40,878 bases of DNA from a virus: the UHGV virus genome UHGV-0182401; one strand, given 5' to 3'. The position numbers and the translations under genes were made by a program. How positions within the stretch are numbered: position 1 is the first letter of the stretch; each line of letters opens with the position of its first letter. Below are positions 5,297 to 32,285 of the stretch, piece after piece. The notes under the pieces are model-generated. The model was not told the origin of the DNA. It saw only the letters and a list, made by a program, of their open reading frames with translations, and searched no databases.

Positions 5297-5478
5297 ACGC
5301 CACAATTCAAACGATACCAGAGCTTCTTATCCAGACACGAGGCAATCAGACCGAAGTGGCGAGGATGCTTTCCTGTGCAAGAGGAACAGTGCTCAAGTAC
5401 AACCGAGACAGCAAAGGTGAGCGTCACGTAATAGTTAACGGCGTCCTGATGGTAACGCCAGGCAAAAAGGGAAGATGA
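5293..5478 (+). CDS. ninH: NinH-like small DNA-binding protein
   Basis: GNQTEVARMLSCARGTVLKY matches the remembered lambda NinH core. Confidence 0.7.
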   Translation: MNATIQTIPELLIQTRGNQTEVARMLSCARGTVLKYNRDSKGERHVIVNGVLMVTPGKKGR

Positions 5479-5996
5479 TGAGCATAAGAGAACTAAACCT
5501 CACCAAAGAACAGCACGATTGGCTGAATTGCTGGCTTGAACTGTGGGGCGCATGGGTTTATTCAGGTCGTCTGGAAAAGCGCATGAGCAGCGTAATAGCG
5601 AAGTTCATGGAGAGCGTAGAGCCGGGAAGAGTTATGACAAGGCCAATGTGCAATGATGATGATGGAATGTTGATTTCTCAGGTCGTCGATTCCGTCATGT
5701 ACATTGACAAGAAAGCCTTTGGCATCCTCCTCAGCTACTACGCTCATGGTTCATCTAAGCGAGCAATTGCATCCTACTATCACGCGACTGCAAAGCCACG
5801 CAAGATGTGTGGACGTGGTGGCGAGGGATGGAGAAAACCTTCACTGGCAACCTGTAGAAACGAAATTGACGACATCCTGAAAGCGTCGTTATTTGTTTTG
5901 TACCAGCCAATGCAAAATGCTTTCAAAATGCGTAAACGTGTTGAGAAAGTTAAGCATGTTGCTGTTAAAAGCCTTGACATGCAATTATCCATTTAG
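5475..5996 (+). CDS. Late-gene antiterminator Q (Q21/QuuD-like family)
   Basis: WGAW and CNDDDGMLI motifs resemble remembered QuuD; last gene before the candidate late promoter. Confidence 0.7.
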   Translation: MMSIRELNLTKEQHDWLNCWLELWGAWVYSGRLEKRMSSVIAKFMESVEPGRVMTRPMCNDDDGMLISQVVDSVMYIDKKAFGILLSYYAHGSSKRAIASYYHATAKPRKMCGRGGEGWRKPSLATCRNEIDDILKASLFVLYQPMQNAFKMRKRVEKVKHVAVKSLDMQLSI

Positions 5997-6013
5997 CCAT
6001 AATTAGAAGGTAA

Positions 6014-6056
6014 GCTGCCGTTAGTGACTCTTAAGTTGCAATGGTGGCTTTTTTTG
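6014..6056 (+). terminator. Possible terminator downstream of Q
   Basis: Imperfect 9-bp stem with G-U pairs and a 17-nt loop, followed by TTTTTTT. Confidence 0.3.
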
Positions 6057-6132
6057 TTTGCACAACAGGTAAGAGCATTGAACCCGCAGACCTCGCGGAA
6101 TTGGTGAAAGGTGCCGCGCAGTGCTCTTATCG

Positions 6133-6263
6133 TTGTGGTGAACTCAATGGCGAGCTAGCAGATAGGCGACAGTGAAAATACTAGTCATGTAGCTGACCGC
6201 CGCGCGTACTGCAATCGGCAGCGCACCGATGGAAGCCGGTTCGATTCCGGCCGCCACAACCCA
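6133..6263 (+). other. tRNA-like element: canonical T-arm (GCCGG-TTCGATT-CCGGC), 7-bp acceptor-like pairing and CCA end, but about 131 nt long
   Basis: GGTTCGATTCC T-loop at 6238-6248; 6133-6139 pairs with 6253-6259; CCA at 6261-6263. No canonical D or anticodon arm could be folded by eye. Confidence 0.3.
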
Positions 6264-6423
6264 AACTGAGCCGTAGCCACTGGCTATCCTGAATTCATCA
6301 GTGATAGTTACGCTGCGGCCTTCTACACATGACCTTCGTGAAAGCGGGTGGTTCAATTCTGCTGTCTTCTTCACGTTAAAAGAGGAATTAGGCTTCGAAA
6401 ATGCAAAAACTTGCAAAAATGAC

Positions 6424-6452
6424 TTGAAAACGAGTTTTGAAACTGCATAATT
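6424..6452 (+). promoter_or_regulatory. Candidate late promoter (pR-prime-like): TTGAAA-N17-ATAATT
   Basis: Near-consensus -35/-10 with 17-bp spacer, downstream of Q and about 80 nt upstream of a strong terminator. Confidence 0.5.
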
Positions 6453-6534
6453 CCTATATGCTCGGACGTCAAAGGCGAAAGAGCTTACCCACCAGCGAAG
6501 ATGCCTTGTGCGGAGCGGTGGGAAACACATTCAA

Positions 6535-6565
6535 GCCCTTGCAGAAATGCAGGGGCTTTTTTATT
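6535..6565 (+). terminator. Intrinsic terminator (tR-prime-like)
   Basis: GCCCTTGCA-GAAA-TGCAGGGGC hairpin followed by TTTTTTATT; immediately upstream of the cargo cluster. Confidence 0.65.
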
Positions 6566-6592
6566 GGCTCAGTGCCACCAGGTGAACACCGT

Positions 6593-7144
6593 ATGCACAC
6601 GGCGATCATTTGCGCTTCCGGACCTTCCCTCACCCACGACGACTGCCAGAAAGCCATTGGCGCTGGATTACCCGTTATTGCGGTGAATTCTTCATGGCGC
6701 GCGGTGCCGGGATGCTCTCACATTTACGCGGGTGATCTGCGCTGGTGGGATGTGAACATTCCCGCGCTGCCCGATGGCCCCGAACGCTGGTCATGTAACC
6801 GGAGAGCACACACCCGATACGGCGTGAGCCTCTTCCCGACAGATACCAGCGGCACATTCAATTCGGGGCAGAGAGCAATCCTGTTCGCTCACTGGCTGGG
6901 TGCCAGTAGCATCATCCTTCTGGGCTTCGATTGCTCAATCTCAAACGGTAGTCACTGGCACGGCGATCACACAGTCCTCGATAACCCGACAGCAGCGAAC
7001 GTAAAGCGCTGGCATGGCGAGTTTGCCCGGGTTGCGGCGCAGCTGCGTGGAAGCGTCAATATCATCAACAGCAGCCGCCAGACGGCGCTTAATTGCTTTC
7101 GTCGCTTACCTCTTGAAGCTGCGATCAGCGAGGTTACATGCTGA
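6593..7144 (+). CDS. Cargo protein of unknown function (183 aa)
   Basis: ATG with GGTGA ribosome-binding site just after the terminator; the 6437 track start would run through the promoter and terminator. No confident family match. Confidence 0.55.
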   Translation: MHTAIICASGPSLTHDDCQKAIGAGLPVIAVNSSWRAVPGCSHIYAGDLRWWDVNIPALPDGPERWSCNRRAHTRYGVSLFPTDTSGTFNSGQRAILFAHWLGASSIILLGFDCSISNGSHWHGDHTVLDNPTAANVKRWHGEFARVAAQLRGSVNIINSSRQTALNCFRRLPLEAAISEVTC

Positions 7145-8079
7145 ATCCTCCGATTTACATCGATGGCATGCTGGGAATGGGAGATACCATTTACCAGCGC
7201 GCTTTCGTCAAACAACTGCCTGCTGGGACATTCATTAAGACGGCATGGCCGGAGCTTTACGAAGATCTGCCGGTGAAAGTTGTCCGAAGTGACACCACGC
7301 TCAGAACGCAGCGTAAAAATGAGTTTCGCAGTTCGGCAAAGTTTTATCCGCCGCCATCGCCACGACAGACGAAGCGAATATTTTACGGACCGTATGATCT
7401 GCGGCGCGGTTCGATATTTGATGCGATGCGACGCCAGTTCGGCGTAACGCCAGCAGCGCTTGATTTGCCATCCTTTGGCCCGTCGCAGTTTACGCACCAA
7501 AAGCCGATCGCCGTTATCCGTCCGGCAACGGTTCGTTCTGAATGGCGTAGCGACTCCCGAAACCCTGACCCCGATTACCTCCTGCGCGCATCGAGAATCC
7601 TGCGGAAACATTTCTGCGTGATTAGCGTTGCTGATTTGCAGGACGGGGAAGAGTGGCTGGTGGGTGAAGAACCAGAGGCGGATCTGAAAATGCACGCTGG
7701 CGAGCTCAATATCAAAGAGCTGATGCGCCTGGTTGAGCATGCCGCTGTCGTGGTTACGCCTGTTGGCTGGGCGCTGCCCGCTGCCATTGCGTACAAAACA
7801 CCTGTTTACGTTGTCGCTGGTGGGCGCGGTGGGCATAACGCTCCCGAGATAGTCACCGATCCGGCGATGGATTTATCCCGCGTTGGCTGGGCAATCCCGG
7901 ACAATTATTGTCGCTGCGAAGCGTGGGATCACCATTGCGACAAACGCATCTTCAACTTTGATTCAAAATTCGAGACATGGCTGAATGAAGTCGTTTTATC
8001 AGGAACTGAACAGCGGGCTGGTATTCCTCCCGGAGCTGGGCATCGGTCGTTATCCGGTTCCGGCATCACGCCCGTATGA
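7138..8079 (+). CDS. GT-B fold glycosyltransferase-like protein (GT9/heptosyltransferase-like motifs)
   Basis: N-terminal GMGD-type motif and C-terminal VVVTPVGWALPAAIAYKTPVYVVAGG resemble GT9 motifs; 7-nt overlap with the upstream gene. Confidence 0.55.
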   Translation: MLNPPIYIDGMLGMGDTIYQRAFVKQLPAGTFIKTAWPELYEDLPVKVVRSDTTLRTQRKNEFRSSAKFYPPPSPRQTKRIFYGPYDLRRGSIFDAMRRQFGVTPAALDLPSFGPSQFTHQKPIAVIRPATVRSEWRSDSRNPDPDYLLRASRILRKHFCVISVADLQDGEEWLVGEEPEADLKMHAGELNIKELMRLVEHAAVVVTPVGWALPAAIAYKTPVYVVAGGRGGHNAPEIVTDPAMDLSRVGWAIPDNYCRCEAWDHHCDKRIFNFDSKFETWLNEVVLSGTEQRAGIPPGAGHRSLSGSGITPV

Positions 8080-8599
8080 CGAGCAGTATTTCGCGAAGTA
8101 TCAGCAGCTTGCCGACACCGAAACAGGCAGAGCCTTAACGCAATCCCGTATTGAGCTGGTGGCGCGCCATTTTCACGGTCCTGTTCTCGACGTTGGTATC
8201 GGTGCCGGTCAGTTCGTCTCTACCCGACCGGGAACGCTTGGGTATGACATTAATCCGGCTGGTATCGCCTGGCTGAACGAGCGGGGCGCATTCGCTGACC
8301 TCTACGCCAGTCAGTGGCGCGCGCTGACGATGTGGGATGTCCTGGAGCACATCGACGAGCCGGAGCTGGCGGTACAGCAGGCTACAGAGTTTGTTTTCGT
8401 GTCGATCCCCATTTTTACCGATGCCGGAGACATTCTTCGCTCGCACCATTTCAGGAAGAACGAGCACATCTGGTATTTCACTGACGACGGTATTAAGCGC
8501 TGGTTTGCAGAGCAGGGCTTCGAATGCGCTGAACAGAACACAATCGAATGCCAGTTAGGGCGTAAGGGCGTCGCTTCGTACGCTTTCCGCCGCGTTTAG
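7985..8599 (+). CDS. Class I SAM-dependent methyltransferase
   Basis: Motif I VLDVGIGAGQF and downstream WDVLEHIDEP typical of the Rossmann-fold methyltransferases; only in-frame ATG is at 7985, giving a 95-nt overlap with the upstream gene. Confidence 0.7.
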   Translation: MKSFYQELNSGLVFLPELGIGRYPVPASRPYDEQYFAKYQQLADTETGRALTQSRIELVARHFHGPVLDVGIGAGQFVSTRPGTLGYDINPAGIAWLNERGAFADLYASQWRALTMWDVLEHIDEPELAVQQATEFVFVSIPIFTDAGDILRSHHFRKNEHIWYFTDDGIKRWFAEQGFECAEQNTIECQLGRKGVASYAFRRV

Positions 8600-8673
8600 T
8601 CCCCTCTTAGCCCATTGCATTTGGGTTTATTCCAGTTTCGCACACATCACCCGCAAACAGGCGAGGTCAACCT

Positions 8674-8832
8674 ATGAATAGCTCTCACGGGATTTTTGAA
8701 CAAACCATGAAATGGATCGCGCTATATCTGCCGTCAGTTTACGCCGGGTTATGCGCTCTGGGCATCTCAGCGCTTATCGACATACGCGCAGGGAAGCCGA
8801 AACTCTACACCGCCACTGGCGCGCTAAATTAA
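8674..8832 (+). CDS. Small hydrophobic protein (52 aa, one predicted transmembrane helix)
   Basis: ATG with GAGGT ribosome-binding site; hydrophobic stretch WIALYLPSVYAGLCALGISALI; just upstream of the holin. Below the ORF-track cutoff. Confidence 0.4.
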   Translation: MNSSHGIFEQTMKWIALYLPSVYAGLCALGISALIDIRAGKPKLYTATGALN

Positions 8833-8863: not shown

Positions 8864-9187
8864 ATGAAGATGCCAGAAAAACATGACCTGTTAGCCGCCA
8901 TTCTCGCGGCAAAGGAACAAGGCATCGGGGCAATCCTTGCGTTTGCAATGGCGTACCTTCGCGGCAGATATAATGGCGGTGCGTTTACAAAAACAGTAAT
9001 CGACGCAACGATGTGCGCCATTATCGCCTGGTTCATTCGTGACCTTCTCGACTTCGCCGGACTAAGTAGCAATCTCGCTTATATAACGAGCGTGTTCATC
9101 GGCTACATCGGTACTGACTCGATTGGTTCGCTTATCAAACGCTTCGCTGCTAAAAAAGCCGGAGTAGAAGATGGTGGAAATCAATAA
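8864..9187 (+). CDS. S: Holin, lambda S type
   Basis: 107 aa, essentially identical to remembered lambda S, including the MKM dual-start motif. Confidence 0.9.
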
Positions 9188-32087: not shown

Positions 32088-32225
32088 TTTCATTTTGGCG
32101 ATGTGCCATATTTGTGTCATACGTGGTAAATCGCCTTTCACTATCTTGCGTCATGTGCCATTGAGTTATGCAATGTGAATGCGGCAATGTACATGTAAAA
32201 CAGTTAGTTAAAAGTGATTCTACTA

Positions 32226-32271
32226 ATTCGTAATGCGAAGGTCGTAGGTTCGACTCCTATTATCGGCACCA
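32226..32271 (+). other. Phage attachment core: 3-prime 46 nt of tRNA-Thr (thrW-like), anticodon loop to CCA
   Basis: ATTCGTAATGCGAAGGTCGTAGGTTCGACTCCTATTATCGGCACCA matches the remembered 3-prime part of E. coli thrW; 14 nt from the integrase stop. Confidence 0.7.
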
Positions 32272-32285
32272 CTAACCACGCGGGT

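Follow-up and report, generated by a model that had tools for sequence, protein, structure and literature searches.

A tRNA-like RNA (TLR) is encoded at positions 6132-6263 on the + strand of UHGV virus genome UHGV-0182401, a 40,878-nt stretch of viral DNA that we call the window. By sequence comparison it is a member of a family of ~133-nt tRNA-like RNAs, with at least 148 loci and 62 distinct sequences in phages and prophages of Enterobacterales, and covariation within the family shows that the + strand RNA is under selection for a five-arm cloverleaf. The element is far beyond chance. The explanation that fits best, and to which we lean with modest confidence, is that TLR is a trans-acting, non-decoding tRNA mimic released from a processed leader.

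The five-arm cloverleaf was predicted by RNAalifold, run unguided on 34 diverse copies. Its parts in the window are as follows.

6132-6263, + strand: entire TLR including the CCA, matched at full length by covariance model R1 (141 bits)
6132-6140, + strand: 5′ strand of the acceptor-like stem, partner 6252-6260; 9 pairs, 7 with double-sided changes, 98% of cells paired
6142-6156, + strand: D-arm, stem A-CTC/GAGCT and loop AATGGC with conserved GG, placed by alignments; one base is deleted in the window copy
6158-6212, + strand: arm in place of the anticodon arm, made of helix P3, junction strands and a long hairpin
6158-6161 and 6209-6212, + strand: helix P3 (GCAG with CTGC), 3 of 4 pairs with double-sided changes
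6162-6164 and 6202-6208, + strand: junction strands ATA and GCGCGTA, recognised by conservation
6165-6201, + strand: long hairpin; 7 of 8 long-arm pairs have double-sided changes
6180-6185, + strand: apical hexamer ACTAGT, a proposed kissing-loop dimerisation site, at the same position in all copies
6214-6230, + strand: hairpin ATCGG-CAGCGCA-CCGAT at the variable-arm position (5 bp, 7-nt loop), 3 of 5 pairs with double-sided changes
6235-6251, + strand: T-arm GCCGG-TTCGATT-CCGGC, 3 of 5 pairs with double-sided changes
6252-6263, + strand: 3′ strand of the acceptor-like stem (6252-6260) and CCA (6261-6263)

Model R1, built from 29 representatives, matches the window copy with an E value of about 7e-30 and scores 128-157 bits uniformly over unrelated phages. 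When the 62 distinct sequences are aligned to the model, 96.3% of pair cells hold standard pairs, compared with 30-45% for slid partners; 23 of 36 pairs have changed on both sides (5-11 for slid partners), and the covariation score is 0.334 against at most 0.082. None of 500 shuffles reached any pairing or covariation measure, and an alignment made with MAFFT only gives the same picture. Because G.U pairs occur on the + strand, the + strand RNA is the selected molecule. The fold of 6133-6263 as a single sequence is uninformative (z -0.9), so the structure is visible through comparison only. We regard a weak R1 match at window 32155-32273 (11 bits, E 0.6) as noise.

An initial annotation, made from the window sequence by itself, had reported a T-arm, a 7-bp acceptor-like pairing of 6133-6139 with 6253-6259 and a CCA end. 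All three can be read in the sequence, the T-arm at 6235-6251, the pairing as TTGTGGT with GCCACAA (one G.U) and the CCA at 6261-6263; the stem, however, is 9 bp long by comparison. Its outermost pair is G-C in 53 of 62 sequences, A-U in 4, G.U in 3 and U-A in 1, and both outer pairs covary. With a 9-bp stem, the window CCA therefore follows the stem directly, without a discriminator base. A tRNA-like 3′ end is common in the family but not universal: the tail after the stem is ACCA in 28 of 62 copies, CCAA (the window type) in 16 and something else in 18. The T-loop reads TTCGAYT in all 62.

Neither a D-arm nor an anticodon arm had been foldable at first. The anticodon arm is truly absent, and no copy of the family has an anticodon loop; the D-arm, by contrast, exists and was missed because the window copy lacks one base of the D-stem 5′ strand (6142/6143, GAA-CTC vs GAAGCTC in every other aligned copy). 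A sequencing error could explain this deletion as well as a real mutation could; it does not appear in the E. coli genome hits, whose alignments begin just beyond the site, and its effect on the model score is small (from ~142 to 141 bits). In relatives the D-stem is 99.4% paired with zero double-sided changes, a support that consists of conservation only, and the D-loop reads AAYGGC or AGCGGC with the GG kept. Of the options that the initial annotation had left open, a tRNA-like RNA structure is the one borne out, as a conserved, covarying cloverleaf on the + strand.

The remaining arms vary in a compensatory manner. Helix P3, which is 3-4 bp long, occurs as GCAG/CUGC, GGG/CCC, GAG/CUC, GUGU/ACAC and GCGA/UCGC. 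The hairpin at 6214-6230 occurs also as AUCAG/CUGAU, AUUGG/CCAAU, AUAGG/CCUAU and ACAGG/CCUGU, versions that come from copies found via the D-arm; our first search pattern required the hairpin sequence itself, which made it seem invariant. Its loop has the consensus N-W-K-CGCA, and GGAA separates it from the T-arm. We considered a pseudoknot between the CGC of this loop and the junction GCGCGUA, for which covariation is uninformative, both being near-invariant.

The apical hexamer of the long hairpin is self-complementary in 62 of 62 copies, in seven variants: ACUAGU, UCGCGA, UCUAGA, GCUAGC, ACCGGU, UCCGGA and UCUGGA (the last through G.U). Treated as three pairs, it pairs in 100% of 87 cells with a covariation score of 0.717, which 0 of 500 shuffles equalled; slid controls score 0 to 0.50, the top value coming from one pair alone. 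Self-complementarity has been preserved across at least 5 double substitutions, and this pattern shows selection, at the level of sequence, for a self-complementary loop. Neighbouring bases inside one loop cannot pair together, and for a DNA palindrome bound by protein the sequence itself would be expected to be kept. Since pairing within the loop is impossible and the hexamer sequence varies, an intermolecular loop-loop contact of two copies is indicated, and a kissing-loop dimer through the hexamer would be the simplest reading. The HIV-1 dimerisation initiation site offers an analogy only. There too a six-base self-complementary sequence is centred in a hairpin loop, and the TLR variants all keep self-complementarity; however, the TLR loop is larger (~20 nt vs 9), the two systems are biologically unrelated, and the TLR dimer is a prediction.

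Known RNA classes do not account for the element. The initial annotation had proposed ARAGORN and Rfam as checks and had regarded a missing covariance-model match, with pairing not conserved in homologous phages, as a sign of chance. ARAGORN finds no tRNA or tmRNA in the window and none at the element in HK75, PdC23 and ST1UNAM. No Rfam 15 model matches the window element at gathering thresholds, the Rfam tRNA model does not match it even at E<=10, and at E<=10 the tmRNA models align to the 17-nt T-arm alone (10-12 bits). The family-specific model does match, as described above, and the pairing is clearly conserved. Rfam 15 contains no family matching TLR.

Like canonical tRNA (RF00005), TLR has an acceptor-type stem open at the 5′ and 3′ ends, a D-arm GG and a TTCGAYT T-loop, and it occupies tRNA slots and arrays and frequently has ACCA behind it. 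It differs in having a stem of 9 bp rather than 7, an ACCA tail in fewer than half of the copies, an A at position 8 and, in place of the 5-bp/7-nt anticodon arm, a 3-4-bp helix, a conserved internal loop and a long hairpin. Besides the T-loop there is a single 7-nt loop, CAGCGCA; it belongs to the hairpin at the variable-arm position, and its residues 33 and 37 are A and C. The acceptor/T stack would be 14 bp (9+5) as opposed to 12 or 13, longer than is known for any tRNA.

The extra hairpin sits where class II tRNAs have their long variable arm. The architecture also resembles tRNA-Sec (RF01852), to the Rfam model of which an intact TLR member aligns end to end at 18.9 bits; however, 47 bits are needed, the alignment carries a 55-nt insertion at the place of the anticodon arm, no anticodon loop is present, and the stack is 9/5 rather than the 13-bp stack (8/5 or 9/4) of tRNA-Sec. 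The only outside match of model R1 is T4 tRNA-Ser, at 17 bits, whose variable arm aligns weakly to the 6214-6230 hairpin. In this tRNA (locus L127, 2614-2707) the long variable arm (CCGGCAGUCGCUCCGG) resembles the TLR hairpin (UCGGCAGCGCACCGA). The tRNA-Sec and T4 tRNA-Ser alignments both hint that TLR may descend from a class II tRNA.

Three further RNAs invite comparison. T4 species 1 RNA (rnaC) is a phage-encoded stable RNA of similar size (139 nt) from the T4 tRNA cluster, with its own T-arm CCGGG-UUCGAAU-CCCGG beside the 3′ end and extra hairpins, but no D-arm is seen in it and the hairpins are arranged differently. We rejected T4 rnaC and rnaD as TLR homologues, as an R1 search of the T4 region matches tRNA-Ser and tRNA-Thr alone and no sequence similarity was detected; they serve as an analogy. 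TLR resembles the tRNA-like domain of tmRNA in combining T-arm and acceptor mimicry in a non-decoding RNA; it lacks the mRNA-like frame, the pseudoknots and the G.U alanine identity pair, and its D-stem is full. The YrlA Y RNAs, bound by Ro60/Rsr, are likewise non-decoding mimics of the tRNA D-arm, T-arm and acceptor region, and some members are cut by RNase P and given CCA (PMC4201824). They are, however, permuted and encoded next to rsr (PMC4201824), whereas the TLR acceptor is open at the ends. No rsr was found among the recurrent neighbour open reading frame (ORF) clusters of TLR, which were not scanned for the TROVE domain. YrlA identity was rejected on the opposite topology, the different context and the lack of an Rfam match.

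These likenesses bear on whether TLR could be charged: given CCA, it would be aminoacylated by an anticodon-blind synthetase of the Leu, Ser or Ala type and would then donate or sequester an amino acid, or engage EF-Tu or the ribosome. LeuRS, SerRS and AlaRS do not read the anticodon, and the architecture akin to class II tRNAs and tRNA-Sec, the T4 tRNA-Ser alignment and the 28 ACCA tails would suit such a role. We nevertheless consider it improbable, as the discriminator is A, C, G or absent, many copies have no CCA, the 9-bp stem is over-long for known acceptors and has no G3.U70, and ARAGORN finds no mRNA-like part or tag.

TLR is widespread. Sensitive BLAST places the core (~6119-6260) in the Salmonella siphophages Skate, Akira, seszw and ST1UNAM and in Pantoea phage PdC23. 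Viral contigs were scanned with two exact patterns, one anchored at each end of the element, which gave at least ~120 loci each and at least 148 together; these counts, like the diversity of the collection, are lower bounds biased to the patterns used. Further copies come from species-representative genomes of Klebsiella pneumoniae, Enterobacter, Superficieibacter and Rosenbergiella. In complete E. coli genomes (5,426), the window-type core is present at >=99% identity in 146, and a TLR of any subtype in 175 (~3%); every copy lies on the chromosome, without an RNA annotation. No RNA is annotated over TLR in any record that we examined, and topic and literal-sequence literature searches found no prior description, although a 2023 IMG/VR catalogue of structured RNAs could include the element among its uncharacterised candidates.

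TLR was observed in several kinds of locus, which we classified by heuristic categories. In Skate the + strand carries promoter-like sites, a hairpin P0 (described below), TLR, tRNA-Ile and a terminator-like hairpin, with opposite-strand genes on either side and no mRNA; Akira has a similar arrangement with tRNA-Met. At loci L128 and L142, tRNA-Arg(UCU) follows TLR after ~5 nt, and then comes tRNA-Met/Ile(CAU), a spacing as in tandem tRNA genes. At L016-type loci a terminator hairpin stands directly after TLR. L016/L028-type loci (e.g. L016 ~7300-7600) have the P0-TLR unit between two near-identical terminator-type hairpins, AGCCACCTTCGGGTGGCTTTTT upstream and GGCTACCTTCGGGTGGCCTTTTTT downstream, with an HNH endonuclease gene just upstream of the unit, which suggests cassette movement by duplication of the terminator region.

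This distribution bears on the view that the element is an integrase attachment site, active or relic, derived from a tRNA 3′ end, as the initial annotation had suggested for a secondary site. The T-arm and 3′ acceptor strand of tRNAs are frequent in phage attachment sites. We find such an origin extremely unlikely: TLR has a D-arm and both acceptor strands, and these strands covary; the element stands in early and late leaders far from the integrase, at several positions that include tRNA arrays, and in virulent-type siphophages. In addition, the E. coli copies (159 to 193) all lie within prophage-type flanks, without association to host tRNA annotation.

Some records annotate proteins over the element, either a "hypothetical protein" (in Skate, KGB39_gp90 overlaps it) or, in vB_EcoP-611R6, "polyubiquitin-A", and in the window an ORF on the - strand (6144-6530, 128 aa) overlaps it. 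That this ORF, or the small annotated ones, is what has been selected is the least credible reading of all. Family members differ by 1-nt insertions and deletions and vary by base-pair compensation rather than by codon position, so that the protein calls appear spurious; HK75 and RefSeq E. coli have no annotated gene there.

The setting of the element in the window is that of a late leader of a lambda-type phage, with the following features.

5475-5996, + strand: Q antiterminator gene (Pfam PF06530 Phage_antitermQ, E 1.4e-25; 99% identity to the HK75 region annotated Q)
5974-6003, + strand: late promoter pR′, TTGACA-18-CATAAT, 11 of 12 matches in a promoter scan, coinciding with the pR′ annotated in HK75
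6013-6056, + strand: tR′, the intrinsic terminator of the short pR′ transcript; HK75 has Tr′ at the homologous position, and a hairpin and T-run are present in the sequence
6061-6137, + strand: P0 hairpin, ~19-20 bp in minimum free energy (MFE) folds, a candidate RNase III site
6264-6351, + strand: conserved downstream flank (AACTGAGCCGTAGCC...), from alignments, common to lambda, HK75, HK629 and BTP1; right-hand junction of the exchangeable cassette
8864-9187: holin gene

Positions 5950-6351 are 99% identical to phage HK75 and many E. coli prophages, and the HK75 record has nothing annotated from tR′ to holin. At its threshold, a promoter scan of the window found no promoter of the element's own between tR′ and the element. 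Within the tR′ stem, window position 6042 is T where HK75, HK629 and BTP1 have C (GCAATGG vs GCAACGG), turning a G-C pair into G.U.

Between the same flanks, BTP1 and many P22-like phages carry tRNA-Asn and tRNA-Thr; in BTP1 the 3′ CCA of tRNA-Thr marks the exact right junction, the window reading ...CACAACCCA at this point, and the same flank follows. The remark that Stx-type phages have real tRNAs at this place was therefore apt. The shared slot and right-hand junction, the T-arm and D-arm like those of real tRNAs and the D-stem deletion of the window copy would all suit a decayed or interrupted tRNA gene from a BTP1- or Stx-phage-like tRNA cassette, the first of the origins that had been considered. 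A pseudogene is very unlikely, however, since all six helices are kept in the 62 distinct sequences, with 23 compensatory pairs that include parts no tRNA has, R1 scores are uniform over unrelated phages, and an anticodon loop is missing throughout. Altogether, covariation, the indel pattern and the distribution contradict the pseudogene, attachment-site, chance and coding readings.

P0 precedes the cloverleaf and overlaps it. It pairs CACAAC-A-GGTAAGAGCATTG (6061-6080) with CAGTGCTCTTATC-GTTGTG (6119-6137) around a variable apical insert (6081-6118); its 3′ strand covers the first 6 nt of the acceptor 5′ strand, and a 13-nt conserved leader makes up the remainder. The outer 6 bp of P0 and the acceptor stem are mutually exclusive. 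This pairing of the leader and acceptor start with an upstream segment defines type U (the window, HK75, Skate, PdC23 and others), and compensatory versions of P0 are present in all type U relatives that we examined, e.g. GGTAATGGCACTG/CAGTGCCATTACC and GGAGAGAGTATTTA/TAAGTACTCTCTTC. In type D, the leader pairs with the trailer instead, lengthening the acceptor to ~21 bp with a bulged A, and the RNA folds into the model by thermodynamics alone (z -4.5). Type D copies lie between nutL and the start of N; the downstream gene is an N-type antiterminator (PF11438 or PF25694), and TLR ends 15-25 nt before the N ribosome-binding site. A type D subgroup, the L046-type loci (e.g. L046 3340-3420), has a conserved small hairpin (CCCGCAUCAGCGGG) after the trailer and then diverse small ORFs instead of an N gene.

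Both frames are found in lambda. The base of the type D stem is identical to that of the lambda N-leader stem, and the phage at locus L009 shares with lambda nutL, the stem base AGCUUUGGGGUGUG/CACACCACCAAAGCU and the N start, the difference being the stem interior only. P0, CCA and the downstream flank of the window recur in the lambda late leader, as does the 9-bp stem in a compensatory version (GUUGUGCUG/CAGCACAAC), around an unrelated 66-nt interior. The TLR frames are shown to be homologous to the two lambda leaders, from nutL and the stem base to the N ribosome-binding site in the one and from P0 through the 9-bp stem and CCA to the flank in the other, whereas the lambda interiors, of about 90 and 66 nt, bear no relation to the TLR core. 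Lambda leader hairpins are known as processing or regulatory sites and not as tRNA mimics, and this part of the late leader is not known to have a function. Its stem-loop and CCA might be a minimal substrate for RNase P and RNase III. The late-leader P0, stem and CCA lie at about 330-546 of locus L160 (lambda 44,400-45,300).

The same frame surrounds yet another interior in HK629 (locus L003). An HNH endonuclease gene (1597-2310) is inserted there downstream of Q, between two copies of the tR′ terminator region, and at 2381-2504 P0 and the closing stem enclose a third interior, with a CCGG-AGAUCAGCA-CCGG hairpin at the place of the T-arm. The P0 module with HK629-type or other interiors was also observed in phages ep3, LPSTLL and D10 and in an Acinetobacter phage record. 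We rejected the lambda and HK629 interiors as degenerate TLRs, because the model with filters off matches the closing stem only. The TLR unit itself is shown to be mobile between tRNA slots and leader hairpins.

The ~20-bp helices present in P0 and in the type D stem are of interest for processing. RNase III processing of both lambda leaders is reported, according to their titles, by Steege (1987), Wilson (2002) and Daniels (1988). RNase III presumably cleaves within the lambda N-leader stem, and we infer RNase III cleavage within P0.

The main rival to the trans-acting mimic is a cis-acting leader module, a possible though less probable reading. Such a module would recruit RNase P and/or RNase III and separate the antitermination complex, with its qut or nut RNA tethered to polymerase, from the downstream message; the cut would permit translation or stabilise the mRNA, as for lambda N, and the released RNA would have no function of its own. 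The two commonest TLR locations are exactly the two leader hairpins of lambda, the closing stems are common to lambda, whose interior differs, and type D ends shortly before the N ribosome-binding site. N autorepression acts from nutL across a highly structured leader up to the N start (PMC5725501), and papers in the reference lists of PMC5371410, PMC5725501 and PMC7547250 report in their titles that RNase III processes the N leader and the Q-dependent late transcript. On the other hand, the Skate, Akira and L128 units stand with tRNA genes and have no downstream mRNA on the same strand; the conserved GCGCGUA, the N-W-K-CGCA loop and the self-complementary hexamer would be superfluous in a processing site; and lambda and HK629 do with unrelated interiors. 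The Skate, L128/L142 and L016-type contexts, the BTP1 slot and the ACCA tails instead support, from sequence, a stand-alone RNA gene.

The trans-acting mimic that we prefer would be made as follows. In the window, TLR would be transcribed from pR′ only when Q allows read-through of tR′, and in the nascent transcript the ~20-bp P0 hairpin would hold the acceptor 5′ strand. RNase III would cut P0 (in type D, the leader-trailer stem), freeing this strand so that the acceptor stem can close, and RNase P and 3′ exonucleases would trim the ends, as for tRNA. The mature RNA would present a tRNA elbow and acceptor end without decoding, and two copies would join tip to tip via the ACUAGU loop. More speculatively, some factor recognising tRNA by its elbow or acceptor would be the target, with the dimer serving in trans as its decoy or scaffold.

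A more specific version, which we find doubtful and offer tentatively, is that TLR represents a new class of phage effector RNA, dimeric and non-decoding, made from the first (pL) or the late (pR′) leader transcript; it would bind a host factor that reads the tRNA elbow and acceptor end and neutralise or redirect it, with tRNAs and TLRs in one slot being alternative answers to the same host pressure. A tRNA-cleaving defence nuclease and a tRNA-processing or tRNA-sensing enzyme are candidate host factors.

Several points weigh against the trans-acting mimic. The MFE structure of the whole unprocessed window unit favours full P0 with the acceptor unpaired, so that only some molecules, or none without processing, may adopt the tRNA-like fold. 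Recognition by RNase P and the CCA enzyme is not guaranteed, the stack being over-long, and CCA and the discriminator are not conserved in the family. As the same closing stem surrounds unrelated interiors in lambda and HK629, part of the "acceptor" is a generic leader stem. Compensatory changes are lacking in the D-stem, and the window copy could be impaired by its private deletion. Neighbour ORF clusters vary by context (Q/holin, HNH, CI/N, tail genes), and no protein partner is constant among them; the counts carry the pattern bias given above. Every step beyond a structure under selection is one that we infer.

Lambda-type phages are among the best-studied genetic systems, yet TLR is unannotated in every record that we examined, among them the ~3% of complete E. 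coli genomes that contain it. It links the two classic regulatory leaders of lambda to a tRNA-shaped cargo and suggests that leader processing, besides tuning N or the late genes, can be a route to functional small RNAs. The covarying self-complementary loop predicts a natural small-RNA homodimer, and such homodimers are rare. For phage tRNAs at positions of this kind, the current debate sets codon usage against escape from tRNA-targeting defences; since TLR swaps with real tRNA genes at one junction, its role could shed light on the presence of one or two tRNAs there in temperate phages. The covariance model would let annotators mark the loci and remove spurious ORF calls.

Downstream of the element, between the late leader and holin, the window contains an accessory cassette (6352-8800) that is an insertion relative to HK75. 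Its genes encode a protein with weak similarity to MptE-like/DUF115-type proteins, below the Pfam cutoff (6593-7144), a 313-aa protein without a Pfam match (7138-8079) and a class I methyltransferase (7985-8599). The cassette was not found contiguous with the element in complete E. coli genomes or in the phage collection. Positions 6424-6566, at its start, could be a small RNA gene: behind a promoter-like site, TTGAAA-16-CATAAT (6424-6451), ~105 nt fold strongly (z -3.8) and finish with an intrinsic terminator of 11 bp and a T-run (6533-6558). This region is 94% identical in Citrobacter phage Omnitron, and its Rfam matches are terminator-like only.

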